A program made the position numbers and the translations under genes. Shown piece after piece: positions 3,525-58,924 of a DNA stretch of 64,000 bases (position 1 is its first letter; each line of letters opens with the position of its first letter). Origin of the DNA: Myxococcales bacterium (lineage in GTDB: Bacteria > Myxococcota_A > UBA9042); contig PBTG01000079.1 of NCBI GenBank assembly GCA_002726535.1, positions 9,615 to 73,614 of the forward strand. The letters run 5' to 3'. Below the pieces are notes generated by a model that searched no databases, was not told the origin of the DNA, and saw only the letters and a program-made list of their open reading frames with translations.

Positions 3525-3692
3525 TCCGGGTTCTGAAAGGAACAGGTAGACTAAAAACGTCCTTTACACAGTTCTTGTCTCCAAAACGGACGGTTTAAGT
3601 AACCCCTAGGGCGGCCTGAGAACCCGCTCTTTTTTTATCGTCTTTCGGAAGCCTTGGGCGACCGGGCAGATGCCCACCGCGAAAATCGCCTT

Positions 3693-6617
3693 ATGGCATT
3701 CGGGAAGATTTACGTCGACGAGGTTATCGACTCAAATGGAGACACTCTCGACATTTCAGAACTCACCTCCAACGAGGCGACTAATGCAGCTAAGGGCTAC
3801 TTATCAGCAGCAGACAAGGCCAAGCTTGATGGTGTTGCTGCAGGTGCAGAGGTCAACGCAGTCACAAGCGTTAACGGCTCGACGGGTGCCGTCACTGTTC
3901 AGGGCTTCTCAGGCGATTATGCAGACTTAACTAATAAGCCAACAATTCCAACAATTGACCCAAATACTGTTATCGACAGCGGCTATGTAGCAACTGACGA
4001 GAACTTCACAACGTCAGACCACAGCAAGCTGGATGGCATTGAGACTGCAGCAACAGCAGACCAAACCAAAGCAGATATTGATGCACTAAATATTGACGCC
4101 GATACCCTTGATGGACAGCATGGTTCTTATTATACTGGTTATACAGACACGGCAGTTGCGGGTCTCGTATATTCTTCCCCAGCCACTTTAGATACATTAA
4201 ATGAATTAGCAGCAGCTTTAGGGGATGACCCTAATTTTGCCACTACAACTGCCAACAGTATTGGCACTAAGTTGTCAAAATCTGGCGGTCAGATGACGGG
4301 GAATATAACGTTCTCTGGGTCACAAACTGTTGATGGTAGAGATTTATCTGCTGATGGGGCCAAGCTGGATGGCGTTGCCGCAGGTGCCCAGGTCAACGCG
4401 GTCACATCGGTGAACGGCGCAACTGGCGCTGTCACGGTCCAGGGCTTCTCTGGCGCGTACGCCGACCTAACAGGCAAGCCAACGTTAGGCACTGCAGCAG
4501 CTACAGCATCCAGTGCCTACGCCACATCGACCCAGGGTGCTACGGCCGACAGTGCTCTACAGCCAGGGGACGCCAACCCTGTGATGGTTTCTGCTGTTGG
4601 AGATCTCCCCAGCGCATCATCGAATCATGGAGCAGTGATTCATGTCCACAATGAGGGCGCGATGTACTTCGCTCACTCAGGCTCATGGCACAAGCTGCAG
4701 AACGAGTCCTCGGCTTTCTCTGGGTCATACAGCAACCTGAGCAATAAGCCGACGATCATTGCGAACACCTTCAGCACGTCAGCACCCTCATCACCTAGTA
4801 CCGGTGATCTTTGGGTAGACACAACAGACACCCCTCCGGTCCTGAAGTCGTACAACGGCACAGCATGGGTTGCTGTTGGATCTGCAGGTTCCTCAACGAG
4901 CGCACCTGTGATCAATGGCGTGACGTTGTCAGAAGTTGACAGCTCAGGTGATCGCTTCACTAGCGAGTCCTTCACTGTCGCGGTCAATATGCTCGACGAT
5001 GGCTCTCCTATCAGTCAGAAGGGCGTCAAGGGCAAGGTCACCGCAACATTCGAGCAGTTCCCAGTAAGTAACGCTATTACGGCTGGGACGGTATCTACTT
5101 CCCAGACTAGTGAGGGCAATACGACTAAAGATAGTTCAACCAACCTGACACACAACGAGAGTACGGGGGCAGTCTGTTTCAACGTCGTAGACACAAGCAC
5201 TAATTCGGTTAGGTGCTTTATGTGGTATCCCGAGGGCAGCGGTAGTAGCTACGACGATATGTTAGAGAACAGCGGGAAAGATCTGTTAGCTTATACCAGC
5301 GTCGATAATGACTTTTACGGCACCGGTGAATACAAGCAGGGATTAGCCGGTGTGCAAAATAGATTGGGCACCTGGGTAAATATTATGGGCAGGCACAACA
5401 ATGTACAAGCGGCCTTCGAGGTGTCCGGGCTTCTGTCGGGCAACCCTGTAAGGTCAAACAAGAACGAAGTGTCGACAGATGCCTATATATATGTTTCTAA
5501 TGGAAGATCGTTTACTCGATATGATTTAAACCGACAAAATGGTATTAGTTTGTTTTTGGGAGGCGTTCCCTATAGCGGTGGTGGCGGCCCATACTTCATG
5601 GAAACCTTGAGCGATAGGATATTCATTGTCTCACAAAGTAGCACCAGCGGTTCTCTTTGGACTAAAGAGCTAACAGACGCTGCCAGTGCCAACTTGTCCA
5701 ACGGCAACTACATTTACCAAGATAATAATCAATCGGGCTTCAACCGGTACGACATAACGGGCTGCATTTTTCACAAAGGAAAAGTATTAATAAGTAAGGG
5801 CATTAACGGGGGCGGTATTTACGCATTTACCCCAGGCACCTCAAGTCCTACGATTTCAGGCATACCAGCGGCACCTTCTGGTTATCAAAATACTTACGGT
5901 GCGATCTGGGAAGATCCCCTTGGCAATTTAATACTTAGGACAACACACTTTAGCACCGATTGGTCGACTCAAGCTGCTTTCTACTATTCGAGTAACAACA
6001 ACGGCGCGACATGGGTTGCTAATCACTACCCATACGATTCAAACTTTAATTATGAGTATTGGACCCCAGACCTCTACCTATACGGACGGCGTCAAAAGTC
6101 CAAAAGAATAAAAGGCAGCGGCTTATCTGCCACTGTGACAAAGCAGGTCTACACAATACGCTCTCAGACGCTCACCGTCACAAATGGAGCAGATCTGAGT
6201 TCCCTGAACGTTGGAGACATCGTTAGACCGCCCGGCGAGACGGATCCACTTAAGTACTCAAAGATTGATTCAATCTCTTCGAATGGCAATGGGACGACAA
6301 ACGTTGTAGTCAATGGCTTCAATGATTTCGCTGTAGGCGATGTAATTGAGTCCACCGCATCCACCGGATCTGCTACCTCGACGAGGTTCCTCGTGATCAA
6401 TGCTCAGGGCGCCATTACGACCCATCAAGTCAGCGACCCTGGCTTTGTAACTCAAGGCCCTGGAGCGTCACACACGATCACGTTCCCTGCGACGTTCCCT
6501 ACAGGTAACTCTCCAGATGATGAGCTACCTAGTGGAACAACAATCCAGGTCGACGTCCAGGCCGTCAACTCTGAGGCCTCTGACACCTACGCATCCAACA
6601 CCCTCACCCCTTCCTAA
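3693..6617 (+). CDS. Large tail fibre / receptor-binding protein, paralogue A (frame open from TTG 3654; first ATG 3693)
   Basis: Two copies of a ~50-aa KLDG(V/I)xAGAxVNAVTSVNG(S/A)TGAVTVQGFSG repeat. Central region has Asp-box-like SNNNGATW. The C-terminal 80 aa is nearly identical to paralogue B (..ITFPATFPTG..DDELPSGTTIQVD..NTLTPS). The conserved 5' UTR is shared with 6642-6700. Confidence 0.65.
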   Translation: MAFGKIYVDEVIDSNGDTLDISELTSNEATNAAKGYLSAADKAKLDGVAAGAEVNAVTSVNGSTGAVTVQGFSGDYADLTNKPTIPTIDPNTVIDSGYVATDENFTTSDHSKLDGIETAATADQTKADIDALNIDADTLDGQHGSYYTGYTDTAVAGLVYSSPATLDTLNELAAALGDDPNFATTTANSIGTKLSKSGGQMTGNITFSGSQTVDGRDLSADGAKLDGVAAGAQVNAVTSVNGATGAVTVQGFSGAYADLTGKPTLGTAAATASSAYATSTQGATADSALQPGDANPVMVSAVGDLPSASSNHGAVIHVHNEGAMYFAHSGSWHKLQNESSAFSGSYSNLSNKPTIIANTFSTSAPSSPSTGDLWVDTTDTPPVLKSYNGTAWVAVGSAGSSTSAPVINGVTLSEVDSSGDRFTSESFTVAVNMLDDGSPISQKGVKGKVTATFEQFPVSNAITAGTVSTSQTSEGNTTKDSSTNLTHNESTGAVCFNVVDTSTNSVRCFMWYPEGSGSSYDDMLENSGKDLLAYTSVDNDFYGTGEYKQGLAGVQNRLGTWVNIMGRHNNVQAAFEVSGLLSGNPVRSNKNEVSTDAYIYVSNGRSFTRYDLNRQNGISLFLGGVPYSGGGGPYFMETLSDRIFIVSQSSTSGSLWTKELTDAASANLSNGNYIYQDNNQSGFNRYDITGCIFHKGKVLISKGINGGGIYAFTPGTSSPTISGIPAAPSGYQNTYGAIWEDPLGNLILRTTHFSTDWSTQAAFYYSSNNNGATWVANHYPYDSNFNYEYWTPDLYLYGRRQKSKRIKGSGLSATVTKQVYTIRSQTLTVTNGADLSSLNVGDIVRPPGETDPLKYSKIDSISSNGNGTTNVVVNGFNDFAVGDVIESTASTGSATSTRFLVINAQGAITTHQVSDPGFVTQGPGASHTITFPATFPTGNSPDDELPSGTTIQVDVQAVNSEASDTYASNTLTPS

Positions 6618-6624
6618 GACATCA

Positions 6625-6644
6625 GGGGCTTCGGCCCCTTTTTT
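6625..6644 (+). terminator. Rho-independent terminator
   Basis: GGGGC-TTCG-GCCCC followed by TTTTTT, immediately after the stop of the fibre gene. Confidence 0.7.
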
Positions 6645-6699
6645 ATTGCTTATTCGGAAGCCTTTTGCGACCGGGCAGATGCCCACAGCTCACCCGCAA

Positions 6700-9570
6700 A
6701 TGTCGGATTCCTACGGAAAAATAAAAGTCGACGAGATCGAAAATTCAGACGGAACTCTGCTCGATCTAACGACAGCAGTGACGACAGAAGCGACGACCTC
6801 AACGAAGGGCTACTTATCCGCAGCAGACAAGGCCAAGCTCGACGGTATCGAGGCCGGCGCTGAAGTCAATGGGGTGACTTCTGTCAACGGCTCGACCGGG
6901 GCCGTGACCATTCAGGGCTTCTCTACAGCAAACAATGCCAAGCTCGACGGGATCGAAACAGGGGCTACGGCAGATCAAACTAAAGCAGATATTGATGCGC
7001 TGAACGTTGACGCAGATACCCTTGACGGTCAACACGGCTCTTATTACACAGGCTATGCGGATACAGCAGTTGCAAGCCTTGTAGATTCGTCTCCTAGCAC
7101 TCTTGATACGCTTAATGAGCTTGCCGCGGCACTTGGTGATGACCCTAACTTTGCGACTACGGTAACCAATAGTATTGGCACTAAGTTACCACTTGCTGGT
7201 GGTCAGATGACGGGAAACATAGCGTTTTCCGGGTCACAAACTGTTGATGGTAGAGATTTATCTGCTGATGGTTCTAAACTTGATGGAATCTCTGCAGGTG
7301 CAGAGGTCAACGCAGTCACAAGCGTTAATGGTGCGACGGGTGCCGTCACTGTTCAAGGATTTTCAGGCGATTACGACGACTTGACTAATAAGCCAGACGG
7401 CTCAGGTTCAGGATTAGATGCTGACAAGGTTGATGGTCTTGAAGCAACTAGTTTCTTAAGATCTGATGCTAATGCTACTTATAACGGTGGTATGCTGACC
7501 ATCAGGTCAAATAGTAACGTCGGAAATTACTGGGCAACAGGTATAGAATATGACAGTGGATGGAAGCATACAAACGCAAATAGTTGGGGATTTGCTTTTA
7601 GGAATAATGGAACCAATGGTTTGCAAATTAAAGTCGCTTCTGAAGCAGGAACAAACCAAAGTGCTGCAACTTACAGGGTGCTGGATATTGGTGGCGCTAC
7701 TCAGAGATTAAAATATGACAACTATGATGTTTGGCACGCAGGAAATTCGACCCCCATTGAGAATGCTTTTGGGTCTTCAGCGCCCTCATCACCTAGTACC
7801 GGCGACTTCTGGGTAGACACCACAGACGACCCCCCGGAGCTCAAGTCATACGATGGTACGGCCTGGGTCCCCATGGGCTCCTCAGCTCCAACCGTTAGCG
7901 CTCCAATCATCAACGGCGTCACGCTGGCAGAAGACAACACGTCCGGCGCTCGCTTCACGAGCAAAGGATTTACGGCAACGATCAACATGCTCAACGACGG
8001 CGCCCCTATTAGCCAAAAAGCTGTAAAGGGCAAGGTCACCGCAGCATTTGAAACGTTCCCAGCTATGCCCGCTGCGTCCTCCAACAGCAGCTCGAGTTAT
8101 GCGAACGGATCTTCTCTTACCGTTCTCAACCGCTGGCAGGTCGACGCCGACGGTGTTCGGATACCAGTCAACGAGCCAGGTCGCAGAGGCTTTCTGACCC
8201 TTTACAGATACGCAGCCAATAATTCGACGGCGCAATCTTTCTACTTCTCCGACGACATGGATATGGAATGGTATAACAGTGGCACCCTGCTTCTCAGTGA
8301 TTTCGGAAACCAAACCACGAAGCCGACATACACAAACATCGTACATCCGACTAACAATAACGCGATAACCCTATACAACGCCTACACTAAGGACAGGGCT
8401 TATGTGATGTACTGGGACGCGAATGGTGCCTTCCAGGTTGCCAATCAATTAGGCGGCCAGGTACTCACTGATCCAGACAATCCGAACAGCGAATATTTTC
8501 AATGGAGCAGCCAGACTAATGGGAGCATGAAAAGAATGGACAAGTATCCCAGCCCAACTACGACCACCACTTCTAACGGCGCCAAAAACTCACTCGGTTT
8601 GTATAACGTTGATGATACGTTTGCTGTAGGGAATGGCATCATTGTTGCCGCAGGACGCAGCTCGGGTGGTAACAATTATCGACCCACTATCTTCACCCGC
8701 CCCGTCAACTTCGGCCAAAACTCCGGCCCTACTAGCTACTTTTTCGGGGCATCGTCAAACAGGAACATTAACTTCATTAAGTACGTGAAGGGCTACTTCT
8801 GGCTTGTCGATAATTCAGAATTGTTCCGGTCATCCACGGGAGCACAGAGCAGTTGGACGTCTATTAATACTAGCTATAACGGAAATGGTCAAAAGCTTAA
8901 GGACATAACAGTCGACCAGAACGGGCACCTGGTCGGCGTGTTCGTCCAAAACAGCAACGGCTCCTCCCGGATGATGAAATCCAATAACTTTGGAGCTACC
9001 TGGGTCTTGTACGGCAGCCTGTCGAACCCTCCTACGAGCGAATATCAGTCCGTTTTCGTTGCAAACAACAGGATTTACGCCTCGGTTCACACCCATTCTG
9101 CGACGATAAACTGGGCCAAGGTAAACACTCAGACAGTCACAGTCTCATCGACTGGCGGTGATTACAACGAATTCAACGTGGGTGACCTTGTCAAGCCTCA
9201 AGGCTCAACCGACTCAGGCGACGTCGGCAAGATCGAGTCAATCTCCGGCACAAGTATTGGCCTCGACTCCCAGTATCTCTACCAAGTGGGAGATGTAATT
9301 GAGGCGACCAACTCAACAGGAACCGCCACCGCGACCCGGTATCTCGTGATTAGCGGGACCGGTGCTATCTCGACCCATCAGGCGAGCGACCCTGGATACG
9401 TGACTCTCAACGCTGGCACCTCCCAGACGATCACCTTCCCCGCAACATTCCCGACAGGCGAAACACCTGACGATGAACTGCCCAGCGGAACGACCATCCA
9501 GGTCGACATCCAGGCGACCAACTCCCAGGCCTCCGACACCTATCCATCCAACACCCTCACCCCTTCCTGA
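6700..9570 (+). CDS. Large tail fibre / receptor-binding protein, paralogue B (alternative ATG 6679; ORF track starts 6517 overlapping upstream gene)
   Basis: Its N-terminal KLDG/VNAVTSVNG repeats and C-terminal 80 aa match paralogue A. The central ~650 aa differ and contain Asp-box-like SNNFGATW. The stop overlaps the downstream chaperone start (TGATCATG). Confidence 0.65.
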   Translation: MSDSYGKIKVDEIENSDGTLLDLTTAVTTEATTSTKGYLSAADKAKLDGIEAGAEVNGVTSVNGSTGAVTIQGFSTANNAKLDGIETGATADQTKADIDALNVDADTLDGQHGSYYTGYADTAVASLVDSSPSTLDTLNELAAALGDDPNFATTVTNSIGTKLPLAGGQMTGNIAFSGSQTVDGRDLSADGSKLDGISAGAEVNAVTSVNGATGAVTVQGFSGDYDDLTNKPDGSGSGLDADKVDGLEATSFLRSDANATYNGGMLTIRSNSNVGNYWATGIEYDSGWKHTNANSWGFAFRNNGTNGLQIKVASEAGTNQSAATYRVLDIGGATQRLKYDNYDVWHAGNSTPIENAFGSSAPSSPSTGDFWVDTTDDPPELKSYDGTAWVPMGSSAPTVSAPIINGVTLAEDNTSGARFTSKGFTATINMLNDGAPISQKAVKGKVTAAFETFPAMPAASSNSSSSYANGSSLTVLNRWQVDADGVRIPVNEPGRRGFLTLYRYAANNSTAQSFYFSDDMDMEWYNSGTLLLSDFGNQTTKPTYTNIVHPTNNNAITLYNAYTKDRAYVMYWDANGAFQVANQLGGQVLTDPDNPNSEYFQWSSQTNGSMKRMDKYPSPTTTTTSNGAKNSLGLYNVDDTFAVGNGIIVAAGRSSGGNNYRPTIFTRPVNFGQNSGPTSYFFGASSNRNINFIKYVKGYFWLVDNSELFRSSTGAQSSWTSINTSYNGNGQKLKDITVDQNGHLVGVFVQNSNGSSRMMKSNNFGATWVLYGSLSNPPTSEYQSVFVANNRIYASVHTHSATINWAKVNTQTVTVSSTGGDYNEFNVGDLVKPQGSTDSGDVGKIESISGTSIGLDSQYLYQVGDVIEATNSTGTATATRYLVISGTGAISTHQASDPGYVTLNAGTSQTITFPATFPTGETPDDELPSGTTIQVDIQATNSQASDTYPSNTLTPS

Positions 9571-9572
9571 TC

Positions 9573-9854
9573 ATGAACGAACAACAGCAAAAAGCAGCGC
9601 AGGCTCTATTCGAGACCTACGACCAAAGAGTTCAAGACACGTCCTTAACTGTCGAGGCCGCATGGTCTAACAAGTTGGCAGGCGAGGCCGTGATCAAGAG
9701 ACAAGGCCTTCTCCAGGCCTCTGACTGGACACAACTACCAGACGTTCCGGTAGACAAGCCAGCGTGGGCCACCTACAGGCAGGCGCTAAGGGACATAACG
9801 GAACAACAGGACTATCCGTTGCTGATCGACTGGCCAGAGGCTCCCTCCGCCTAG
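9573..9854 (+). CDS. Tail fibre assembly chaperone (Caudovirales Tfa-like)
   Basis: C-terminal AWATYRQALRDITEQQDYPLLIDWPEAP matches the conserved W..YR..L..I....P..I.WP..P end of the lambda Tfa / tail fibre assembly family. It lies directly downstream of the fibre gene with 2-nt spacing. A terminator follows at 9862-9883. Confidence 0.6.
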   Translation: MNEQQQKAAQALFETYDQRVQDTSLTVEAAWSNKLAGEAVIKRQGLLQASDWTQLPDVPVDKPAWATYRQALRDITEQQDYPLLIDWPEAPSA

Positions 9855-9861
9855 TAATACC

Positions 9862-9883
9862 GGCCCCTTCGGGGGCTTTTTTG
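9862..9883 (+). terminator. Rho-independent terminator
   Basis: GGCCCC-TTC-GGGGGC followed by TTTTTTG, after the Tfa-like gene. Confidence 0.7.
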
Positions 9884-9921
9884 TTGCCCCTTCGGAACCC
9901 TGACGCAGCAGCGGTTCCCGA

Positions 9922-12900
9922 GTGTCTGAAGCAAAGAAACTCGACGCTCGGATGCTCCAGTGGCAGGACCAGTTAAGCGGCCTGACTGAGACAAACAGGG
10001 AGCAAGTAACACGCACATTGGCGCGTTCAATCAGCGGGACAGTGGCCGATCTGAAAGTTGCCTACAGCAAGTTCAACGCATCAGAAGGAACGAGCAACCG
10101 ATACACCATCGAAAGCCAGACGGTGAGATTCAGAGAGCTCACCAAAGCAGCCGAGGGGTTGATAGGCCCAGGAGCGCTAAAGAACATCAAGGCGATCTAT
10201 GAAAACGATCTAAACGACGCCTACTCGCTCGGGACGTCTGCAAGCAGAGATCTCACCAAGATCGTTGATGGCGCGGACACAAGCGCACAAGCAATGATCT
10301 CGAAGATGCCTGTAGCTGCGCAGGCAGCAGCAGGTCAGAACTTGATGCAGTTCTGGGACAAAGAAAAAGCAGCCTTAACCAACAAAGTCAGAGAAGCGAC
10401 CCTCTCCGCATTGCAGCGCGGCAAAGGATGGGCATCAGCTCAAAAAGACATCGCACAGGCCCTTCGCTCAAGTGGCCAGACAATCCTGAGGGGTAGAGAC
10501 GAGCTCAGCGTCACGGCCCGCGGCGGAATCGTGATGAACCTCGAGCAGCGGGCTGATCTGATCGCAAAGACGGAGATGGCTAACGCTTACATCCAGGGCC
10601 AGATATCGCAGTACAAACAAAACGGATACACACACGGCAGATGGTCGGCCACGGGTGAAAGAACTTGCCCGTTTTGTGTGAGTCGTGAGGGCAACATCTA
10701 TACCCTCGACGAGCTCGAAGGCGCGATCCCTGCGCATCCTCGCTGTCGTTGCACGATCGCCCCTGTCCTTGAGGAGAACGTCAAGAACGTCCAGAACGCA
10801 AGGGACCAGGGAGCGTCGGCGGCCCTGAACCTTGACGACGCTGGATGGACGGCAATACGTCAACAACGATTCAACGAATACCAGAAGTTCACCGGCAAGC
10901 CATTAGCTGATCCATCTAGGTGGATGAATGCGCCTACCAGTCGCCAAAAATTTCTAAACCCCAGGGCACAAGGAGACAAGCCCGCGTGGATGCCGTCGGG
11001 GAATGTTGTGCCAAACCTCGAGGGCGCACAGGCCGCCGCGATCAGAGCAAAGGATCTCGAGGCCGCTTCGAAAGAAGACCAGAAGGATCTGGATGCACAG
11101 AACAAAGAGATCGAAAAGCAGAAGCAAGCCGCGAAGCTGGTGAAAGAGCGCAAGGGCGAGGAGTTCACCTTTAAGCGCTTTAGCGACGCTACCGGCGACG
11201 AACCAGGTCCGGACACGAACTGGACTTCCGAGAGGCAGAAGCTGCACGACAAAATTGTTCAGAACTTCCTGAAGGACGGCAAGAAAAGCGCGACTCCAAC
11301 TTTCACCATGTCTGGCGGCGGCCCGGCTTCAGGGAAGGGCTTCATGCTGAAGAAGACCGGCCTAGATCAACCCGGCAAGGTAGTGATTGATGCCGATGAG
11401 ATCAAAAAGCTCATCCCTGAGTACGCCAAAGCCCAGAAGAAAGGCGGCGATGCACAGCAAGCTGCGGCGGGCGTTGTTCACGAGGAGTCGAGCTATCTCG
11501 CCAAGCGAATCATGGGCGAAGCTTCCAAGCGTGGTTTTGACATCGTTCTCGACGGCACTGGAGATAGCGGCATCAAGTCGCTAACCAAAAAGGTTCAGAA
11601 GATGCGCGATGAGGGGTATCGAGTTGAGGGGAAATATGTCAGCGCAGATACGGAGACCGCTGCACAGCGCAACTGGGATCGCTTCCTCAAAACTGGCCGG
11701 CTCCCACCCGAGTGGATGCTCCGCAATGTTCACGCCGACGTCTCGCGCACTTTGCCTAAGGCAATGCAGGACGGCCTGTTCGATGAGATCGAGCTTTATG
11801 ACACGAACAAGTCAGGGGAGCTGCGCAAGGTAGCCAGCCAGAAGGGCAAAAATAATCCAAAGATCCACGACAGCAAACTTTGGGACGACTTCAAGCGCAA
11901 GGGTGAGGCTGGACTTGTCACAAAAGAGCAGGGCGAGCGGCTAATCGAAGCCCGCAAACTGAAGGTGGACGTTAAAGCCAAGAGCAGCCACGGCAAGCAC
12001 AGCAATGCTCGCGCCGAAGGGGCCGAGCCTGGCCCCGATACCGTGTGGACCCTTGACCGCCAGAAGCTCCATAAGGAGATTGTCGACAAGTTCCTCGCCA
12101 ACGGTGCCAAGTCGGCTAACCCGACGTTCACCATGAGCGGAGGCGGCCCCGCTTCAGGTAAAGGCTTCATGCTGAAAGCCACTGGACTCGACAAGCCCGG
12201 AAAGGTCGTTATTGACGCAGACGAGATCAAAAAGCTGATTCCCGAGTATGCGGATGCCCAGAAGAAAGGTGGCAAAGCCCAACAGCAGGCAGCCGGATAT
12301 GTCCACGAAGAATCGAGCTACCTGGCCAAGCGGATCATGGCCGAAGCTGCGAAGCGCAGTTATGACGTCGTACTTGATGGCACAGGCGATAGCGGGATCA
12401 ATTCGCTATCCAAAAAAGTGCAAAAAATGCGTGACCAGGGCTATCGCGTTGAGGCGAAATACGTCAGTGCTGACACCGAGCTGGCTGCGCAAAGGAATTG
12501 GGATCGCTTCCTGAAAACAGGACGCCTACCGCCCGAGTGGATGCTTCGGAACGTTCATGCCGATGTGTCTCGGACACTTCCCGAGGCAATGAAGAAAGGC
12601 CTATTCGACGCGGTGGAGCTGTTTGACACCAATCTGAGCGGCCAACTGCGCAAGGTCGTCAGCCAGAAAGGCAAAAGCAAGCCCGAGATTCTCGACAAGC
12701 AGTTATGGAACGACTTCCAGAACAAGGGAAAAGCCAAGCAGGTCACGCCCGAGGAAGGCGAGGCAATGATCGCCAAGCGAAAGGCCGAGACCGAGGACCT
12801 CTCAAAGACAAGATCTGCAGGCACAGGCAAAACACCCGCAAAGACAAAGCCTTCCCCCACTAAGGCAAAGGAGAGCGACATGGTTGACCGGGCGACGCGA

Positions 12901-15126
12901 ATGAAGACCAGCGACGTCTTGGCTGATCCCTCCCGCTTCCAGTACAAGGTCAACTCGAACAGCAAGACAGGGGAGGTCGGCTCACTGTCCGGGGTCAAGA
13001 CTTGGAACGAGGATTTGGCAGGCGTTCTTTCGGTCTGGAAGGACCCGGCCAACGGGAAGACCTACGTCATCAACGGACACAACAGGCTTGCGCTAGCAAA
13101 GAAGCTCGGCGCCAAAGAGCTCCCCGTTGTTGTCATTAACGCCAAAGACGCCAAGGCGGCAAGGTCGATCGGCGCGAAACAAAACATCGCGAACGGTGAT
13201 GGAACCGCAATTGATGCGGCCAAGTTCATGCGCGACACCAACACAACAGCGCGAAGCCTGAAGGCCCAGGGCCTGAATTTGAAAGGATCTATCGCTTCAG
13301 ATGGCGCTGCCCTGGCGAACCTGCCCGACCATATTTTTAGGGCCGCTCTTGAGGGCCGGCTGTCGATCAGTCGAGCAGCCGCAATTGGTCGAAGTGGCCT
13401 GTCATCCGGGCAGATGAACAGCGCTTACAACGTGTTGAAGACAAAGCCTTCGATGTCTGTGGGCACTCTCGACGAGGTGCTTTCGAATGCCAGAGCTTCA
13501 GTAACACGCACCACAAGCGAAGAGACACTGTTCGGGACAACTACTACTCAGACTTCGACCCTGGTCGAGCGGGCCGATTTGGCCGCGAAGTTAAAGGCTG
13601 ATATGGGCAAAGAGGTGAGGATCCTCGACAAGGCTGCAGGCCGTGCCGATGTATTGAACAGCAAAGGAAACCGGATTGATGCGGGCAAGGCTCAGGTGAA
13701 GGCGGCTGAAGCGCAGGCACGCCTCGAGGTTTTTGAGCTGACAAAAAACAGTCAGGGTTCGAACCTGAACAAGACGCTGAACGAGGCCGCTTCTGCAATC
13801 CAGGATGCCGGTGGACGCTCGGCCAAGGCTCAGGCCACCAAGACCGGGAGAACAGCCGTCGATCAGGCCCTCGACGCAGAAATTGCAGCAATGAAGAAAA
13901 ACAGCAGCGGCTTACTTCGAAGCATCGCTGACCTCAAAGCCGTGGAGGCCGGCAAGGTCGCCCGCCCGCCCGAGCTCGCACTTGCTGCGGAAGCTCCAGA
14001 CTTGACTATCGACAAACGGCCCACGCGGTTGCTCGATCCGAAGACTGCGAAGGCAGGGTCAATCGGAGCTTTAAGGGTTAATCAAATCAAAGCCGACCCG
14101 AAGCGCTTCCAATACAAAGCCGCAACCGTCGCCGCCACTGGTGAGGTGGGTTCACTCGATGGAGTCCAGCGGTTCGACCCCAATCTCGCCGGAGTTATCA
14201 GCGTGTGGAAGGACCCAGCCAATGGGCAGACATACGTTATCAACGGCCACAACCGCCTAGCCGCGGCGAAGCGATTAGGGGCCGACGATATCGCTGTCAG
14301 ATATCTCAAAGCCGACAGGGCTGAGGATGCACGCTCTATCGGAGCACTGGCCAACATTGCCGAGGGCCACGGAACGGCGCTTGACGCCGCGAAGTTCATG
14401 AGAGCTAAGGGCTACTCCGGCACTGACATGAGGGCGCGGGGAATTGCCATGAAAAAAGATGTTGCCCGTGATGGCGCCGCTCTGGCCAACCTCCCCGAAG
14501 AAATCTTTGGGGATGTGGTGAACGAGAACATCTCAATAGAGAAAGCGTCTGCAATTGGATCCGGCGGACTGGACCGAAAGGGGATGGAGGCCGTCTACAG
14601 AAATCTGAGAACCCGGCCGGCGGCATCCGTGAAAACGGTGACCGAGCTTGTCGCGGCTGAAAAGATGTCGATGGAGATGGGGAGCACCGGCTCGCTATTT
14701 GCTGAATCCGCCGATGATCTGGCCTATCAGATGAACCGGGCCGACTTGACCGGCAAGGTTCGCGACGACTTGTTAAAAGAAAAATCACTCTTTAAGGCGG
14801 TAAGCACAAGCCGGGCGGCTCGTGATCTTGAGAAGGCAGGCTCGACTCTTGACCTGGCAGCCAACAGCAAGGCTGCGGCTCAGGCCGAGACGATCCTTTC
14901 CGTGTTTGATCAACTGAAAAACAGCAGCGGCCCTGTGGCCTCCGCCCTTAGCAGTGGCGCCCGAGATCTCGCTGTCGCCAAAACTGCTGCTGAGAAGAAT
15001 GTTGTCCGCCGCAGAGTGATGGATGACATCTCTAAGGCCGTCGATCAGGAACTTGGCGGAAACCTCGGCAGTGTGGAAGAACCACCTTCGGAGGCTCCCG
15101 GCCAGGAATCCCTGTTCGGGTTTTAA
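9922..15126 (+). CDS. Polyvalent virion protein: MuF/SPP1-gp7-like head-morphogenesis domain + 2x zeta-toxin-like P-loop kinase + 2x ParB-like nuclease domain
   Basis: GTG start. aa 240-280 CPFCVSREGNIYTLDELEGAIPAHPRCRCTIAP is the hallmark C-terminal motif of Mu F / SPP1 gp7 minor head proteins. aa ~425-660 and ~702-940 are two near-identical repeats (period 277 aa) with P-loop TFTMSGGGPASGKGF, VVIDADEIKKLIPEY and VLDGTGDSG (zeta-toxin-like). aa ~995-1190 and ~1385-1580 are two repeats with DP.RFQYK...TYVINGHNRLA(L/A)AK(K/R)LGA (ParB/Srx-like). Confidence 0.8.
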   Translation: MSEAKKLDARMLQWQDQLSGLTETNREQVTRTLARSISGTVADLKVAYSKFNASEGTSNRYTIESQTVRFRELTKAAEGLIGPGALKNIKAIYENDLNDAYSLGTSASRDLTKIVDGADTSAQAMISKMPVAAQAAAGQNLMQFWDKEKAALTNKVREATLSALQRGKGWASAQKDIAQALRSSGQTILRGRDELSVTARGGIVMNLEQRADLIAKTEMANAYIQGQISQYKQNGYTHGRWSATGERTCPFCVSREGNIYTLDELEGAIPAHPRCRCTIAPVLEENVKNVQNARDQGASAALNLDDAGWTAIRQQRFNEYQKFTGKPLADPSRWMNAPTSRQKFLNPRAQGDKPAWMPSGNVVPNLEGAQAAAIRAKDLEAASKEDQKDLDAQNKEIEKQKQAAKLVKERKGEEFTFKRFSDATGDEPGPDTNWTSERQKLHDKIVQNFLKDGKKSATPTFTMSGGGPASGKGFMLKKTGLDQPGKVVIDADEIKKLIPEYAKAQKKGGDAQQAAAGVVHEESSYLAKRIMGEASKRGFDIVLDGTGDSGIKSLTKKVQKMRDEGYRVEGKYVSADTETAAQRNWDRFLKTGRLPPEWMLRNVHADVSRTLPKAMQDGLFDEIELYDTNKSGELRKVASQKGKNNPKIHDSKLWDDFKRKGEAGLVTKEQGERLIEARKLKVDVKAKSSHGKHSNARAEGAEPGPDTVWTLDRQKLHKEIVDKFLANGAKSANPTFTMSGGGPASGKGFMLKATGLDKPGKVVIDADEIKKLIPEYADAQKKGGKAQQQAAGYVHEESSYLAKRIMAEAAKRSYDVVLDGTGDSGINSLSKKVQKMRDQGYRVEAKYVSADTELAAQRNWDRFLKTGRLPPEWMLRNVHADVSRTLPEAMKKGLFDAVELFDTNLSGQLRKVVSQKGKSKPEILDKQLWNDFQNKGKAKQVTPEEGEAMIAKRKAETEDLSKTRSAGTGKTPAKTKPSPTKAKESDMVDRATRMKTSDVLADPSRFQYKVNSNSKTGEVGSLSGVKTWNEDLAGVLSVWKDPANGKTYVINGHNRLALAKKLGAKELPVVVINAKDAKAARSIGAKQNIANGDGTAIDAAKFMRDTNTTARSLKAQGLNLKGSIASDGAALANLPDHIFRAALEGRLSISRAAAIGRSGLSSGQMNSAYNVLKTKPSMSVGTLDEVLSNARASVTRTTSEETLFGTTTTQTSTLVERADLAAKLKADMGKEVRILDKAAGRADVLNSKGNRIDAGKAQVKAAEAQARLEVFELTKNSQGSNLNKTLNEAASAIQDAGGRSAKAQATKTGRTAVDQALDAEIAAMKKNSSGLLRSIADLKAVEAGKVARPPELALAAEAPDLTIDKRPTRLLDPKTAKAGSIGALRVNQIKADPKRFQYKAATVAATGEVGSLDGVQRFDPNLAGVISVWKDPANGQTYVINGHNRLAAAKRLGADDIAVRYLKADRAEDARSIGALANIAEGHGTALDAAKFMRAKGYSGTDMRARGIAMKKDVARDGAALANLPEEIFGDVVNENISIEKASAIGSGGLDRKGMEAVYRNLRTRPAASVKTVTELVAAEKMSMEMGSTGSLFAESADDLAYQMNRADLTGKVRDDLLKEKSLFKAVSTSRAARDLEKAGSTLDLAANSKAAAQAETILSVFDQLKNSSGPVASALSSGARDLAVAKTAAEKNVVRRRVMDDISKAVDQELGGNLGSVEEPPSEAPGQESLFGF

Positions 15127-15141
15127 AAAGTAAACTGAACC

Positions 15142-15381
15142 ATGATCGATCTCAGTAATCAAGCGATTCGCGAAAGTTTCGATGCCATGCTCGAAGCCGT
15201 GTCAGAAGTGATTTCACCGGAGGAGCTAGTGATCTGGCATCACCGGATCGAAAACTGTGACAACCTCAGCCAGGCTGCAGAGGTGACCACCCAGATGATC
15301 GGCCGGCCGATGTCAGACGAGGAGCGACAGGAGGCTGACGAGGTCCGCCAGTCGCTAATCCTGTACGGAGAGGATCTTTGA
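15142..15381 (+). CDS. Hypothetical small acidic protein
   Basis: ORF track. The ATG lies 16 nt after the stop of the polyvalent gene. No recognised motif. Confidence 0.35.
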   Translation: MIDLSNQAIRESFDAMLEAVSEVISPEELVIWHHRIENCDNLSQAAEVTTQMIGRPMSDEERQEADEVRQSLILYGEDL

Positions 15382-15398
15382 TGAGGGCCGTTAGTACC

Positions 15399-15437
15399 GG
15401 TTCGAACCTTGACAGGTCCGGTCCGGAAAGGTAAGTT
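15399..15437 (+). promoter_or_regulatory. Sigma70-like promoter preceded by GGTTCGAACC palindrome
   Basis: GGTTCGAACC-TTGACA-N17-TAAGTT, then an AGGAGG RBS and ATG 15467. Confidence 0.45.
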
Positions 15438-15466
15438 ATGCACGACGCCCTCAGGAGGCAAAACCA

Positions 15467-15667
15467 ATGGCTCTCTATGCCGACGAGATGGAGAAGATTG
15501 TCACCCAAGTAGCTCGCGGTGAAGAGCCACAGGTCCGCGAATCGAAAGATGCGGCGGAATTCCGTGAGGGGGTCACCAACGAAATCGAAGAAGCCCGCAA
15601 GATCGCAGAAGAGCGCGGCCTCGACTTCATGGTCGAGATCATTAACGAGACTCCAGAGATGTGGTGA
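15467..15667 (+). CDS. Hypothetical small acidic protein
   Basis: ORF track. Strong RBS AGGAGG 8 nt upstream. Preceded by the TTGACA-N17-TAAGTT promoter at 15409-15437. Confidence 0.4.
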   Translation: MALYADEMEKIVTQVARGEEPQVRESKDAAEFREGVTNEIEEARKIAEERGLDFMVEIINETPEMW

Positions 15668-15738
15668 TTGGCCTGAGAAGTCAATGCCTGAGTGAGCTTT
15701 TCATCTGACGGAACACTCAGGCAGTACCAAACTGACCA

Positions 15739-15984
15739 GTGACTCAGTCCGTAAACATCCTGCGAATCGTTTTTAATTCCGGCCGAGTCGTCGAAGAGCG
15801 TGGCGGAGAGGACATGATCATTGCTCTGTTTGCGCGAGACATTGAGGGCTTGATCGATTACATCATGGCTATCGATATGAGTGATGGGAAAGTGAATATC
15901 TACTGCGACGAAGACGACCAGCGATTTAATAACACTGAGGTCTTGATGTCGACGGATGTCCTCAGGTGGAACCGCCGGAGCTGA
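15739..15984 (+). CDS. Hypothetical protein
   Basis: ORF track only. Confidence 0.3.
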   Translation: MTQSVNILRIVFNSGRVVEERGGEDMIIALFARDIEGLIDYIMAIDMSDGKVNIYCDEDDQRFNNTEVLMSTDVLRWNRRS

Positions 15985-23184: not shown

Positions 23185-27417
<4,233 letters not shown>

Positions 27418-39518: not shown

Positions 39519-40277
39519 GTGATCCCCGTCTGCACCATGCCCGAAGAGAATCTCAATCTCGACGTCAACGCTGGCGTTGAAACCGCCGAAACAGTCGACG
39601 CATCCCCCTCCACTGAACAAGACAGCTATTCAAAGGAGGAGGTCTCGAAACTGCTAAAGGCTTTACATACCGAGCGCGACGCTCGCAAAGCACAAGAGAA
39701 AGCCCTCAAGGAATCAGCCACCAAGCTGCAATCCCTGGAAGGCATCGATAAGGCCACTTACGACAGGCTTCAGGAAGAATCTGCACGCCGTGCGGAGGCT
39801 GAGGCCACTTTCGAAGCTCGTGAGCTCGATCGCCAAAAGGCCTTCGAGTCGATGCGTCAAGAGGCGGCCGTCCGTGAGCGCAAGCTCGAAGGGCAGATCA
39901 GCCACATGAATCGCCACCGGGCGTTCGAGGGACTCTTCTCCGCTGCAGGCGGTAAGGGCGGAAGATTCCTAGATACAGCGTTCGACGCTGTCGGCAAAAG
40001 CCTACGCCTAGAAGACAACGGCTCATTTACGGTCATCGACCCCAACGGCGACCCCTTGCTCGACGATGAGTCAGGCAAGCGCATCGACCCAAAAGAGTGG
40101 GTTAGCCAGTGGAAAAGCGATGACTTTCTCGGCTTCTGCTTTGAGCCCGAACAGGGCTACGGCACCGGGGCAACCAATCACCCCTCACAGCGTCGCGACA
40201 CAGGGACTATGGGTGATTTCAAAGGTCTAAGCACTAGCGAAATCTTCGCCCGTTCGTTCGGCAACAAGAAGGGCTAA
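39519..40277 (+). CDS. Putative capsid scaffolding protein
   Basis: Acidic N-terminus followed by a long charged coiled-coil-like stretch (KAQEKALKESATKLQSLEG..EESARRAEAEATFEARELDRQKAFESMRQEAAVRERKLEGQ). Lies immediately upstream of the candidate capsid gene. GGAACCATAGG at 39489. Confidence 0.4.
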   Translation: MIPVCTMPEENLNLDVNAGVETAETVDASPSTEQDSYSKEEVSKLLKALHTERDARKAQEKALKESATKLQSLEGIDKATYDRLQEESARRAEAEATFEARELDRQKAFESMRQEAAVRERKLEGQISHMNRHRAFEGLFSAAGGKGGRFLDTAFDAVGKSLRLEDNGSFTVIDPNGDPLLDDESGKRIDPKEWVSQWKSDDFLGFCFEPEQGYGTGATNHPSQRRDTGTMGDFKGLSTSEIFARSFGNKKG

Positions 40278-40493: not shown

Positions 40494-41417
40494 ATGTCTT
40501 TAACCCTGCTACAGCAAGGCCAGTTCGCCACAACAGGCGAGCAGCTTGCAATCATCTCCGAGCTCGCCGCTGGCGACCTCCTTTCAGTTCTTCCCTTCCG
40601 TTCAATCGAAGGGAACAGCATCCGCTTCCGGCGCGAAGAGGCTCTGCCTGACGTCGGCTTTCGCCACGTCAACGGAACTCTCACCGAGAGCTACGGCGAG
40701 ATCTCGATGCAAAGCGAGGCTCTCCACCTGTATGGCGGCGACCTGCGCGTTGACAAGGCCATCCTGACCCTCGAAGGTCCTGAGGCCCGTGCATGGAACA
40801 TCCAGGCCCGCGTGAGAGCAATGCGCCACAACTTCGAGAAAGTCTTTATCAAAGGATCCGAAGCTGCCTCTAACGGCCTCGAGTTCGATGGACTGCAGGC
40901 CCGTATCGCTGCAACCTCCAGCCAGTACATCGCCAATCAGTCCGGCAACTCCGGCGCCCTCAGCTTCGCAGCTTTGGACGAGGCCCTCGACGCAGTCGAC
41001 GCCACTGGCGGCCAAAAATACTTGGTCATGTCGAAGCAGATGCGTCGTGCCCTGACCGCCGGCTCCCGCGATTCTGGCGTCAACGGTGGCATACATATCA
41101 GTACCGACGAGCTTGGGAGACAGCGCACTATGTACGCTGATACCCCGGTGTTGATCGTGGACCGCGACGAGAAGAACGTTGACATCCTGGGCGCTACTGA
41201 AGCAAACAGCACTTCTTCCGTCTACATCGCGTCATTCGGCGACACCGCTCTGACCGGCATCCAGAACGGCGGCATCGAGGTCCGCGACCTCGGAGAAGCC
41301 ACCGACCGCCCTCAGATGGTCACAAGAATGGAGTGGTATTGCGGACTAGCTCTGCTTCGTGGAAATGCTGTCGCACGCCTCGCCAAGGTTGACCCAACTC
41401 TGGCCGCTGTCGCCTGA
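40494..41417 (+). CDS. Putative major capsid protein
   Basis: 307 aa. Sits after a scaffold-like gene and before a ~107-aa gene. Sequence (GLQARIAATSSQYI..ALSFAALDEALDAVDATGG..KYLVMSKQMRRAL) is reminiscent of lambda-E-like capsid proteins. Assignment is by position and composition only. Confidence 0.4.
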   Translation: MSLTLLQQGQFATTGEQLAIISELAAGDLLSVLPFRSIEGNSIRFRREEALPDVGFRHVNGTLTESYGEISMQSEALHLYGGDLRVDKAILTLEGPEARAWNIQARVRAMRHNFEKVFIKGSEAASNGLEFDGLQARIAATSSQYIANQSGNSGALSFAALDEALDAVDATGGQKYLVMSKQMRRALTAGSRDSGVNGGIHISTDELGRQRTMYADTPVLIVDRDEKNVDILGATEANSTSSVYIASFGDTALTGIQNGGIEVRDLGEATDRPQMVTRMEWYCGLALLRGNAVARLAKVDPTLAAVA

Positions 41418-58027: not shown

Positions 58028-58924
58028 ATGACTAAAACTAAGCTTCATGTCCCAAGTTCGGTCGATCAATTTTTCAACTCGATGGGCCGCTATAAAGTCC
58101 TGGAGCCTGCTCTGGTTATCGAGCTTGCCCGGAAGGTCCAGGCTTGGAGGCAGCACCCGGACGGCCCTGACGATTGTCCGCTAGTCGTTAAACGTCTGGG
58201 CTTGGCAGCGCGAAATAAGTTGGTCGCCCACAACCTTCGTTTAGTCGTAAGGATTTGGCGGGACTGTTACGCCATGCGCGTGACAGCAAAAGATCCCGGT
58301 CTCGCTGATATGTTTCAGCTCTCTGCACAGCAGTTGGTTCGGGCCGCTGAGTTATTCGATCCACTTAAGGGGCGCACTTTTTCAACTTATGCCTCAACGT
58401 GGATCCATAAAGGAATGAAAGAATTTATAGGTGGGCAGCGCCGAACGGTTCGAATCCCGTTGAGTCATTATTTCATTATCAAGGCGGCTCTACTTATCCA
58501 GAGCAATCGCTCTGCGGCCGGCTTGCCTAAATTGTCCATGACAGAGCTAGTGGATGAGATGTCGCAAACTCGGCAGGTTATGCCGACGCCAGAGCAGCTC
58601 GGCGATTGGATTCGGTGCCACGATCTCACTGATCTCAGGTCGTTTTCCGAACGCATCGGGGATGAGAAAACTGAGCTAGGTGATTTGATTGCCAGCCGTC
58701 AGACCGAGGGCGATGACGCCAACGACGCGGTCCAGCGTGCTCGTGATGCCATGGCCGATCTCACGACCATTGAGCGTCGCGTTGTCGAGAAGATGCACCT
58801 GCGGGGCCGTGGTTCGATCGGGTATCGAAGCTGCGCCAAAGTGCTAAAGATCTCTGAGCTTCAGGTCCGCGCTGCAGAGGCCAGGGCTTTCGATCAGATC
58901 AAACTCTCAATCTCGGTAGACTGA
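58028..58924 (+). CDS. Sigma-70 family RNA polymerase sigma factor
   Basis: Region-2-like VAHNLRLVVRIWRD..AELFDPLKGRTFSTYASTWIHKGMKEFI (cf. DLIQEG..GL..A..KFD...G..FSTYA.WWIR) and region-4-like IERRVVEKMHLRGRGSIGYRSCAKVLKISELQVRAAEARAF. Confidence 0.8.
   Translation: MTKTKLHVPSSVDQFFNSMGRYKVLEPALVIELARKVQAWRQHPDGPDDCPLVVKRLGLAARNKLVAHNLRLVVRIWRDCYAMRVTAKDPGLADMFQLSAQQLVRAAELFDPLKGRTFSTYASTWIHKGMKEFIGGQRRTVRIPLSHYFIIKAALLIQSNRSAAGLPKLSMTELVDEMSQTRQVMPTPEQLGDWIRCHDLTDLRSFSERIGDEKTELGDLIASRQTEGDDANDAVQRARDAMADLTTIERRVVEKMHLRGRGSIGYRSCAKVLKISELQVRAAEARAFDQIKLSISVD

Follow-up and report, generated by a model that had tools for sequence, protein, structure and literature searches.

A MuF-anchored polyvalent protein with paired zeta-type kinases and paired ParB/Noc-like modules in a P-SS2-like cyanosiphovirus

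The 64,000-nucleotide (nt) stretch of contig PBTG01000079.1 analysed here (the window, with all coordinates counted from its first letter) is part of the genome of a siphovirus, a P-SS2-like cyanosiphovirus, and its gene at 9922..15126 on the forward strand encodes a single chain of 1734 amino acids (aa) in which a MuF/SPP1 gp7-type anchor is followed by two zeta-type kinases and two ParB/Noc-like modules. We favour, with a probability of roughly 0.6, a five-step model (anchor, cargo, delivery, kinases, ParB-like pair) in which this chain is a polyvalent cargo protein housed within the virion. Proteins of the polyvalent and MuF-fused kinds are thought to act in the infected cell before any other phage protein; to our knowledge almost none of them have been studied, and for the marine cyanophages that control Synechococcus and Prochlorococcus no such study is known to us. 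One anchor unites the gene with its relatives in a compact natural series, which stands beside a cultured reference phage, P-SS2, whose homologue has been detected in virions. The parts of the protein are as follows.

9922..15126, + strand: whole gene of the 1734-aa MuF-anchored polyvalent protein, a single open reading frame (ORF) with a GTG start, TGA/TAA stop included
9922..11121, + strand: anchor region, aa 1-400, conserved at the N-terminus of every clade member irrespective of cargo
10381..10758, + strand: Phage_Mu_F / SPP1 gp7 domain, aa 154-279 (PF04233, TIGR01641), with CPFC at 10666-10677 and AHPRCRC at 10732-10752
11188..11970, + strand: zeta-type kinase module A, aa 423-683 (PF06414), 88% identical to copy 1 of the relative P0006, with Walker A GGGPASGKGF at 11314-11343, IDAD at 11380-11406, LDGTGD at 11548-11565 and TGRLPPE at 11692-11712
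12013..12795, + strand: zeta-type kinase module B, aa 698-958 (best PF06414 stretch aa 731-901), with Walker A at 12139-12168, IDAD at 12205-12231, LDGTGD at 12373-12390 and TGRLPPE at 12517-12537
12796..12891, + strand: Lys/Pro/Thr-rich flexible linker, aa 959-990, read from the sequence
12892..13941, + strand: ParB/Noc-like module 1, aa 991-1340 (phmmer against the PDB; TIGR00180 below cutoff; secondary structure the same as in module 2), with DPSRFQYK at 12925-12948, NGHNRLA at 13072-13092, NIANG at 13183-13197, ANLPDHIF at 13315-13338 and the TLFG loop at 13525-13536
13942..14046, + strand: inter-module linker, aa 1341-1375, predicted to be disordered (pLDDT 30-49 at residues 355-379 of the tandem model)
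14047..15123, + strand: ParB/Noc-like module 2, aa 1376-1734, with DPKRFQYK at 14095-14118, NGHNRLA at 14242-14262, NIAEG at 14353-14367, the SLFA loop at 14692-14703 and a C-terminal QESLFGF at 15109-15120

Results

An intact gene with a constant anchor and exchangeable cargo

ORF analysis of the window showed that the reading frame runs from its GTG start to the stop with zero internal stops, the longest ORF overlapping 9922..15126 being 165 aa long. An independent Logan contig (SRR20403670) encodes a residue-for-residue identical 1734-aa product with the same boundaries and the same neighbours, and the N-termini of homologues share the start sequence MSEAK.LDARMLQWQ with the window protein. 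Because of this identical independent call and the matching N-termini, a hidden frameshift or a wrong start is excluded, and the splitting of the ORF by a frameshift or stop, which the first-pass annotation (made from the letters alone) had named as grounds for abandoning its reading, was not found in either assembly. The motifs quoted in that annotation are likewise all in place: CPFC at aa 249-252, AHPRCRC at aa 271-277, GGGPASGKGF at aa 465-474 and 740-749, DP.RFQYK at aa 1002 and 1392 and NGHNRLA at aa 1051 and 1441, with VVIDADEIK, LDGTGD and TGRLPPE occurring twice each. In the PHROGs database, phrog_16619 ('minor head protein') matches the protein at E=0, while a megablast search with the gene found zero matches among 50,697 phage records.

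The head-morphogenesis domain was recovered above cutoff by both Pfam (PF04233, E=6.6e-12, 46.6 bits versus a cutoff of 29.6, aa 154-279) and NCBIfam (TIGR01641, SPP1 gp7, E=1.8e-16, 60.4 bits versus 39.65). The domain assignment of the first-pass annotation thus stands, whereas its placement in the "N-terminal third" was too generous, as the domain covers aa 154-279 and the conserved N-terminal region of about 400 aa amounts to 23% of the chain. This region (aa 1-400) is 60-93% identical to that of about twenty metagenomic proteins with wholly different C-terminal parts (P0013-P0031), and because the N-terminal ~400 aa are kept while the C-termini differ, the anchor is the constant part and the remainder exchangeable cargo. 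On this one anchor the cargo swaps between ADP-ribosyltransferase (ART), HExxH peptidase, one to three zeta copies and the ParB-like pair, as exemplified by the following relatives.

P0004 (1800 aa, 52% identical over the full length): MuF-2xZeta-2xPar
P0002: MuF-3xZeta-2xPar
P0003 and P0005: of the P0002/P0004 type, with an additional R-S-E ADP-ribosyltransferase-like segment in front of the ParB-like pair
P0006 and P0007: MuF-2xZeta with other C-terminal ends
P0010, P0011 and P0012: MuF-HExxH peptidases-2xPar
P0020 (Synechococcus sp. SYN20 chromosome, 2.73 Mb contig): MuF-Zeta-HExxH-ART

The exact MuF-2xZeta-2xPar order of the window protein occurs in one other database protein (P0004), plus the close variants listed. 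That P0020 is encoded by a cultured Synechococcus suggests a prophage there, whole or as a remnant, with marine Synechococcus as a host group of the phage lineage. With five domains of three kinds, a structural-gene neighbourhood and mosaic relatives, the window protein has the make-up by which polyvalent proteins are recognised.

The closest characterised homologue is abundant in P-SS2 virions

The closest characterised homologue is ORF030/gp030 of Prochlorococcus siphovirus P-SS2 (YP_003084174, 1499-1500 aa; locus L001, 11908-16407), which is 47% identical over aa 1-680 and whose single kinase is 71% identical to copy B of the window protein and carries the identical GGGPASGKGF Walker A. Among the rows listed in the relevant part of the 2009 P-SS2 proteome table, ORF030 has the highest peptide count in purified virions, 96.5 on average, and is labelled 'major capsid protein' there (PMC2784084). 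The true P-SS2 capsid gene lies at 84331-85245 and its product is 59% identical to that of the window gene at 40494-41417; ORF030 is a MuF-zeta polyvalent protein and not a capsid protein. Packaging of the window protein is thus well supported by analogy with this homologue, and the packaged multi-effector role that the first-pass annotation had put forward fits both the abundance of the P-SS2 homologue in purified virions and the polyvalent-protein literature.

Just downstream of the MuF gene, both phages also share a small ORF (15467..15667, + strand, 66 aa in the window) that by tblastn is 61% identical over 66 aa to P-SS2 ORF033, a protein found in virions with 2.5 peptides (PMC2784084).

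Two old and conserved zeta-type kinases

Both zeta-toxin-like kinase domains of the first-pass annotation were confirmed by Pfam search, PF06414 (Zeta_toxin) matching in two stretches at E=1.4e-49 (168.7 bits versus a cutoff of 22.3 for the whole protein). Modules A and B are 77% identical over 261 aa without a gap. In an alignment of module B with zeta toxin (1GVN) and PezT (2P5T), the residues equivalent to K46, D67, E116 (as Asp) and T118 are in register: the second Asp of IDAD (IDND in zeta) aligns with the catalytic D67, and LDGTG aligns with IEGTG, placing Asp at the position of zeta E116. TGRLPP corresponds to the R171 region, and the equivalent of R158 is one position off in the pairwise alignment. 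Judged by motif content, the kinases appear catalytically intact.

The unusual Gly after the Walker lysine that had been pointed out earlier is real and kept across the cyanophage clade, GKG being the reading of both window copies and of every one of the 14 clade copies, with GKS or GKT in more distant relatives. Adenylate kinases likewise use G-x-P-G-x-G-K-G, so that GKG need not mean inactivity, and the catalytic motifs are identical in 14 of the 14 clade copies. The best NCBIfam match of the kinases is AvrRxo1/XopAJ (E=5.8e-6), followed by PezT (1.3e-4), both far below the family cutoffs, and this ranking of AvrRxo1/XopAJ above PezT does not settle the substrate.

The two copies share 70% nt identity, with a proportion of synonymous differences (pS) of 0.75, which is saturated, and a proportion of nonsynonymous differences (pN) of 0.165. 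Since synonymous sites are saturated while pN is this low, both copies have been kept by selection, and since each is closer to its orthologue in P0006 (copy 1, 88%; copy 2, 94%) than to the other copy, both are old as well. A recent tandem duplication or an assembly artefact is rejected on the same grounds (70% nt identity, saturated synonymous sites, copy-for-copy orthologues in P0006). Other lineages have one, two or three kinase copies, and copy number has changed more than once, because the P0004 copies are closer to each other than to the window copies.

The zeta kinases do not form a toxin-antitoxin module here: no epsilon/PezA antitoxin gene adjoins the MuF gene, and no immunity or antitoxin gene was recognised in its flanks, where the small ORFs match no Pfam family.

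ParB/Noc-like modules of a family without a model of its own

The C-terminal modules, 44% identical to each other over 288 aa, had been described as two ParB/Srx-like nuclease domains. Membership of the ParB/Srx superfamily holds; the term nuclease is better replaced by ParB/Noc-like module, as none of the results points specifically to a nuclease. PF02195 (ParBc) finds no match at E<=1 in the whole protein or the isolated modules, nor at E<=0.01 in 24 family members. PF18763 (ddrB-ParB) also finds no match in the protein, the isolated modules or the 24 relatives, while as a positive control it detects P1 DdrB at 2.1e-39, and hhalign of the family profile (A1) against DdrB gave a probability of 0.1%; on these results a DdrB-like identity was rejected. 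TIGR00180 remains below threshold (E=3e-4 and 0.017, the former for module 1, 20.5 and 14.9 bits versus a cutoff of 58.45), NCBIfam further matches Noc (9e-4) and SerK (8.5e-3), the family profile finds no ParB match among PDB sequences, and PHROGs yields short matches to 'ParB-like partition nuclease' families (phrog_620 at 5.7e-8).

What connects the modules to ParB and Noc is a phmmer search of the PDB with the first 190 aa of module 1, which matched Noc (7NG0, E=0.001) and Caulobacter ParB (6T1F, E=0.0057) in an alignment of 115 aa that spans box II, box III and the 'LP..v' helix of the DNA-binding domain. Modelled with AlphaFold2 (AF2) from an alignment of 24 sequences (pLDDT 87.2, pTM 0.78), module 2 is predicted to have a four-stranded alpha+beta N-domain (1-105), a helix-turn-helix (HTH)-like helical domain (111-210), a disordered loop and long helices (222-335). 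With this model, Foldseek against the BFVD viral models retrieved large 'polyvalent protein' entries first, aligned over the whole 360 aa, and then phage ParB/Spo0J. The best sequence and structure matches taken together are the DNA-clamping proteins ParB, Noc, KorB and PadC, including their HTH DNA-binding domain, and at the level of the fold the alpha+beta N-domain and the conserved Arg of a G-x-x-R pocket motif are those of the ParB/Srx superfamily. We conclude that the modules belong to this superfamily and lie nearest to the ParB/Noc/KorB type, DNA-binding domain included, and outside ParBc, TIGR00180 and the DdrB-like family; on the structure model, each ~350-aa module would be closer in layout to a complete ParB/Noc-type protein than to an isolated nuclease domain.

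Across 24 diverse family members, 25 columns are invariant; they are concentrated in the pocket motifs and cluster in DPxRFQYK, GSL, W.DP, NGHNR, R..G..NIAE and D..K, a pattern that would be expected of a conserved ligand pocket. A tandem AF2 model of both modules, made to look for a pseudo-dimer within one chain, reached a pTM of 0.48, with a disordered linker, and was built from only 8 sequences; we do not use it as evidence for such a pseudo-dimer. Weak Ribosomal_L9_C matches (best E=2e-4) were seen in the C-terminal helices of 5 of the 24 family members (at aa 805-862 in L024); these probably reflect a shared long-helix feature rather than homology.

A further conserved element lies in the loop that AlphaFold leaves disordered, where a motif of the form [T/Q/E]-x-[D/S/T]-L-F-G followed by acidic residues recurs in 189 of 194 modules, always at a fixed spacing of ~150-160 aa from the preceding NGHNR. 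Three LFG-type copies are present in the window protein (13525-13536, 14692-14703 and the C-terminal QESLFGF at 15109-15120). In one-fifth of the family modules the motif reads Qx[SDT]LF, which resembles the peptide that binds the bacterial sliding clamp (beta-clamp); from its sequence, clamp binding, a protease site or a docking peptide would be equally possible.

The ParB-like family recurs at the portal

In a profile search of 1.84 billion representatives, the ParB-like family, clustered at 50% identity, numbered 3814 clusters at E<=1e-3 and 2262 at the stricter E<=1e-30, and in IMG/VR a relative of the module is encoded on 340 contigs. No Pfam domain covers the ParB-like region in any family member examined, and the family is without a Pfam, PHROGs or NCBIfam model of its own. 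By far the commonest architecture is a single module, in proteins of 400-4660 aa, and the module forms the extreme C-terminus in 83 of 138 family members.

Several of these proteins belong to the portal itself. In the protein encoded at 6267-9008 of L024, a lambda-type portal (PF05136, E=3e-113, aa 40-383) is followed by the module at aa 579-911, and such portal-module fusions occur in about 10 of the 79 IMG/VR loci examined, with three representatives; others are L031, L032, L034, L037, L038, L042 and L043 as well as P0077 and P0082. A match of phrog_21 ('portal protein') to the C-terminal modules of the window protein is explained by these portals that carry a fused module. MuF-Par-Par proteins without kinases are found in L005 and L006 (each ~1170 aa), and at ~17 further loci a separate MuF gene lies upstream of the module gene. 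The module is also present at ~aa 443-766 of a 2563-aa protein of Prochlorococcus phage P-SCSP1g, an MPP-C cyanopodovirus (PSCSP1g_00025; L002, 5672-13363), which has no Pfam match and is encoded four genes downstream of a gp12-like nozzle/tail-tubular gene. Proteins at that position in P-SCSP1 were suggested to be internal virion proteins on size and position (PMC9860041), and the module would be the first functional clue to the one of P-SCSP1g. Time and again, then, the module is fused to a protein that resides inside the capsid at the portal, or its gene lies beside that of such a protein.

Zeta and ParB-like modules also meet without MuF, as Par then Zeta (P0032, P0033) or Zeta then Par (P0173, P0196), and as adjacent separate genes (L008, 4138-10055; L009, 4919-9926; L033, 3179-10154). 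Their co-occurrence in unrelated arrangements suggests a functional link beyond shared cargo status. Tandem ParB-like pairs are found in 11 of 12 MuF-fused proteins and in 0 of ~210 others. As module 1 and module 2 are each orthologous across the MuF relatives, this duplication was a single old event, and the count of tandem pairs is therefore not independent evidence of a functional need.

Genomic neighbourhood

The genes around the MuF gene are those of a siphovirus, with the following recognisable features.

3654-9570: tail-fibre-like ORFs
9573-9854: tail assembly chaperone (PF16778)
9862..9887, + strand: terminator-like GC hairpin (9862-9877) with T-run, a consensus match only
21933: tail tube
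23185-27417: tape measure
39519-40277: scaffold
40494-41417: major capsid protein
58028-58924: 298-aa ORF with a Sigma70_r2 domain (E=8e-8), candidate phage sigma factor

Baseplate and fibre proteins are encoded after the tape measure, and the window also encodes an endolysin, a primase/helicase, RecT, an exonuclease and the sigma-factor-like ORF. Its major capsid protein is 59% identical to that of P-SS2 and 55-57% to those of Synechococcus phages S-CBS2 and S-CRES1-3. The terminator-like hairpin separates the MuF gene from the upstream tail chaperone, and no sigma-70-like promoter was found in 9400-15800.

The tail chaperone is directly preceded by a pair of large tail-fibre-like ORFs (987 and 1017 aa) that belong to the same PHROG families and overlap by ~100 nt; a tail-fibre cassette directly before the MuF gene is an unusual setting for a head protein. 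The scaffold and major capsid genes come after the entire tail module, ~25 kb downstream of the MuF gene. No terminase was recognisable within the 64-kb window. Because neither portal nor terminase is recognisable and the capsid genes follow the tail module, the gene order is atypical for a siphovirus.

Discussion

In the model that we favour, the N-terminal 400 aa would dock the protein to the portal and thereby bring a few copies into the procapsid, as has been shown for SPP1 gp7. Behind the anchor, flexible Lys/Pro/Glu-rich linkers would hold the exchangeable cargo, here two zeta-type kinases and two ParB/Noc-like modules, and judging from the nature of the cargo in relatives the packaged protein would most likely leave the capsid with the DNA at infection. 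By family precedent, the kinases would then phosphorylate a nucleotide-type small molecule, such as UDP-N-acetylglucosamine (UDP-GlcNAc; zeta/PezT) or nicotinamide adenine dinucleotide (NAD; AvrRxo1), which may cripple host cell-wall synthesis or NAD-dependent metabolism and defence, and two copies of the kinase could double the enzyme dose of a low-copy protein. The ParB-like pair, to go by its fold, its nearest relatives and the portal and MuF fusions, would bind nucleic acid in a nucleotide-dependent manner, most likely the phage genome at the portal or leading end, and its task would be to hold, protect or position that DNA, not to partition it; the neighbours of the gene are virion genes, and no ParA/parS context was found.

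Several observations weigh against this model. A portal gene is not recognisable in the window by PHROGs, Pfam or tblastn with the P-SS2 portal, the MuF gene comes after tail-fibre and tail-chaperone genes and not after a portal gene, and the position next to the portal gene in a head/packaging module that is typical of MuF minor-head genes was not found in the window. The kinases lack the G-x4-G-K-[ST] form of Walker A, their GKG being without the usual Mg-coordinating hydroxyl, which could mean altered chemistry, and a specificity for UDP-GlcNAc cannot be assumed, as zeta E116 and R120 are both Asp here. In the ParB-like modules, the canonical GERR (GERRxR, box II) and ENLQR (ENxQR, box III) boxes are absent, with GHNR and (Q/A)NIA(N/E)G instead, and because these boxes are not kept CTP binding by the pocket is putative. 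Ejection from the capsid is something that we infer for the window protein and P-SS2 ORF030 alike, and those ParB-like copies that are fused to portals would stay in the virion unless cleaved off.

The last point leads to the main competing explanation, in which the protein resides in the head and is not injected: the ParB-like modules would grip the genome at the portal, for DNA-end retention or the onset of ejection as proposed for SPP1 gp7, and the kinases would act only in the producing cell or the capsid. The portal fusions fit this explanation, as portals remain in the particle, and so do the frequent placement of the module at the extreme C-terminus and the properties of SPP1 gp7, a DNA-binding, portal-bound protein that affects infectivity. 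Yet relatives load the same anchor with ART toxins and metallopeptidases, for which there is no plausible task within a capsid, a packed capsid lacks the ATP and small-molecule substrates on which zeta-type kinases depend, and MuF and portal fusions are read in the literature as delivery devices. We therefore consider a purely head-resident protein unlikely, if still credible.

It is distinctly unlikely that the ParB-like modules, once injected, nick or degrade the DNA of the host or a competitor as non-specific DNases under NTP control, an activity proposed for DdrB-like ParB and implied by the nuclease label of the first-pass annotation. The ParB/Srx fold, the nuclease or NTPase activities of Osa, ParB-methylase and GmrS summarised in PMC5512222 and the short PHROGs matches to partition nucleases would agree with such an activity. 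The modules are not DdrB-like, however, since PF18763 found P1 DdrB only and hhalign gave no match; their best matches clamp DNA; and at the portal a nuclease would endanger the very genome that the phage has packaged.

A MuF polymorphic toxin for inter-bacterial competition, released with or as particles from lysogens and accompanied by an immunity gene nearby, is very improbable. The MuF N-terminus with a toxin-type C-terminal domain does fit the layout of that family (PMC5576092), and P0020 resides in a bacterial chromosome. The account of MuF toxins (Jamet et al. 2017, PMC5576092), on the other hand, mentions no member from cyanobacteria and no cargo of the zeta, kinase or ParB type, neither an epsilon/PezA-like nor any other recognisable immunity gene adjoins the window gene, and the gene lies among the structural genes of a complete-looking siphovirus. 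That the extra domains are decayed pseudo-enzymes, serving as bulk or spacers within the head, is extremely improbable even though the Walker A Ser/Thr is lost and the ParB GERR box is not kept, given the uniform catalytic motifs of the clade kinases, a dN far below dS between the copies and the invariant pocket columns of the ParB-like family.

The observations can also be combined into a more far-reaching proposal, which as a whole is decidedly improbable. The ~350-aa module would be an undescribed branch of ParB/Noc, used by tailed phages as a nucleotide-gated clamp inside the capsid that keeps the genome's leading end at the portal and enters the cell together with the DNA. In MuF proteins, of which few copies are present, the tandem pair would supply both clamp halves in one chain, with portal-fused and free versions dimerising in trans; the disordered [DS]LFG segment would dock to a partner from host or phage, for example the beta sliding clamp, and the pairing with zeta would link nucleotide chemistry with the clamp. 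If the ParB-like module does bind NTP and DNA like ParB and Noc, ParB-type nucleotide switches would extend from chromosome segregation to viral genome delivery.

Comparison with known systems

The anchor of the window protein carries the same Pfam and TIGR domain as SPP1 gp7 and phage Mu gpF, and portal-mediated targeting to the capsid interior in few copies is expected here as well: in SPP1, the portal directs a few copies of gp7 into the procapsid interior, and gp7 binds DNA and supports the initiation of infection. SPP1 gp7 has ~300 aa and no enzymatic cargo, whereas the window protein is nearly six times longer. With P-SS2 gp030 the protein shares the MuF anchor and linker, a zeta-type kinase and the type of virus, but gp030 has a single kinase copy, an unrelated C-terminal half of ~830 aa and no ParB-like module, and its gene lies ~1 kb downstream of the portal gene, unlike the window gene, which follows tail-fibre genes.

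The kinase modules share with zeta/PezT (1GVN, 2P5T) and AvrRxo1/XopAJ the P-loop kinase fold, the Walker Lys, the catalytic Asp after strand 2, the GTG segment and the GR..P arginine. They differ from zeta/PezT in an identity of ~25%, in GKG instead of GKT/S, in the Asp residues at E116 and R120 and in the missing epsilon/PezA partner, and also in being tandemly duplicated and embedded in a virion protein. Compared with chromosomal and plasmid ParB, Noc, KorB and PadC, which are CTP-dependent clamps, the ParB-like modules are without the GERR and ENLQR boxes, a ParBc match and ParA/parS, and they are found within capsid-internal proteins and in tandem in one chain.

Polyvalent proteins were defined by Iyer, Burroughs, Anand, de Souza and Aravind in 2017, with MuF as a head-targeting module fused to effectors (PMC5512222). 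That work explicitly lists fusions of zeta-toxin-like kinases to MuF in phages, treats DdrB-like ParB domains as a hub for which roles as NTP-regulated DNases or in NTP sensing were proposed, and notes several copies of one domain per polyvalent protein (PMC5512222). The window protein has the same traits: many effector domains, a setting among virion genes, MuF targeting, a zeta-MuF fusion, domains of the ParB superfamily and repeated domains. The ParB of Iyer et al., however, is DdrB-like (PF18763) and unmatched by the window module, and PMC5512222 contains no cyanophage example, no MuF-zeta-ParB combination and no ParB/Noc-like module family. The first-pass annotation had suggested that the MuF-2xZeta-2xParB arrangement may be new. 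For the exact combination this holds in the literature found, where we met no description of that order, while MuF-zeta fusions, DdrB-like ParB and the multiplication of domains were all described in 2017 (PMC5512222). The general kind is thus known; absent from both PMC5512222 and the MuF-toxin account (PMC5576092) are the ParB/Noc-like family, its pairing with zeta kinases on a MuF anchor and any cyanophage example.

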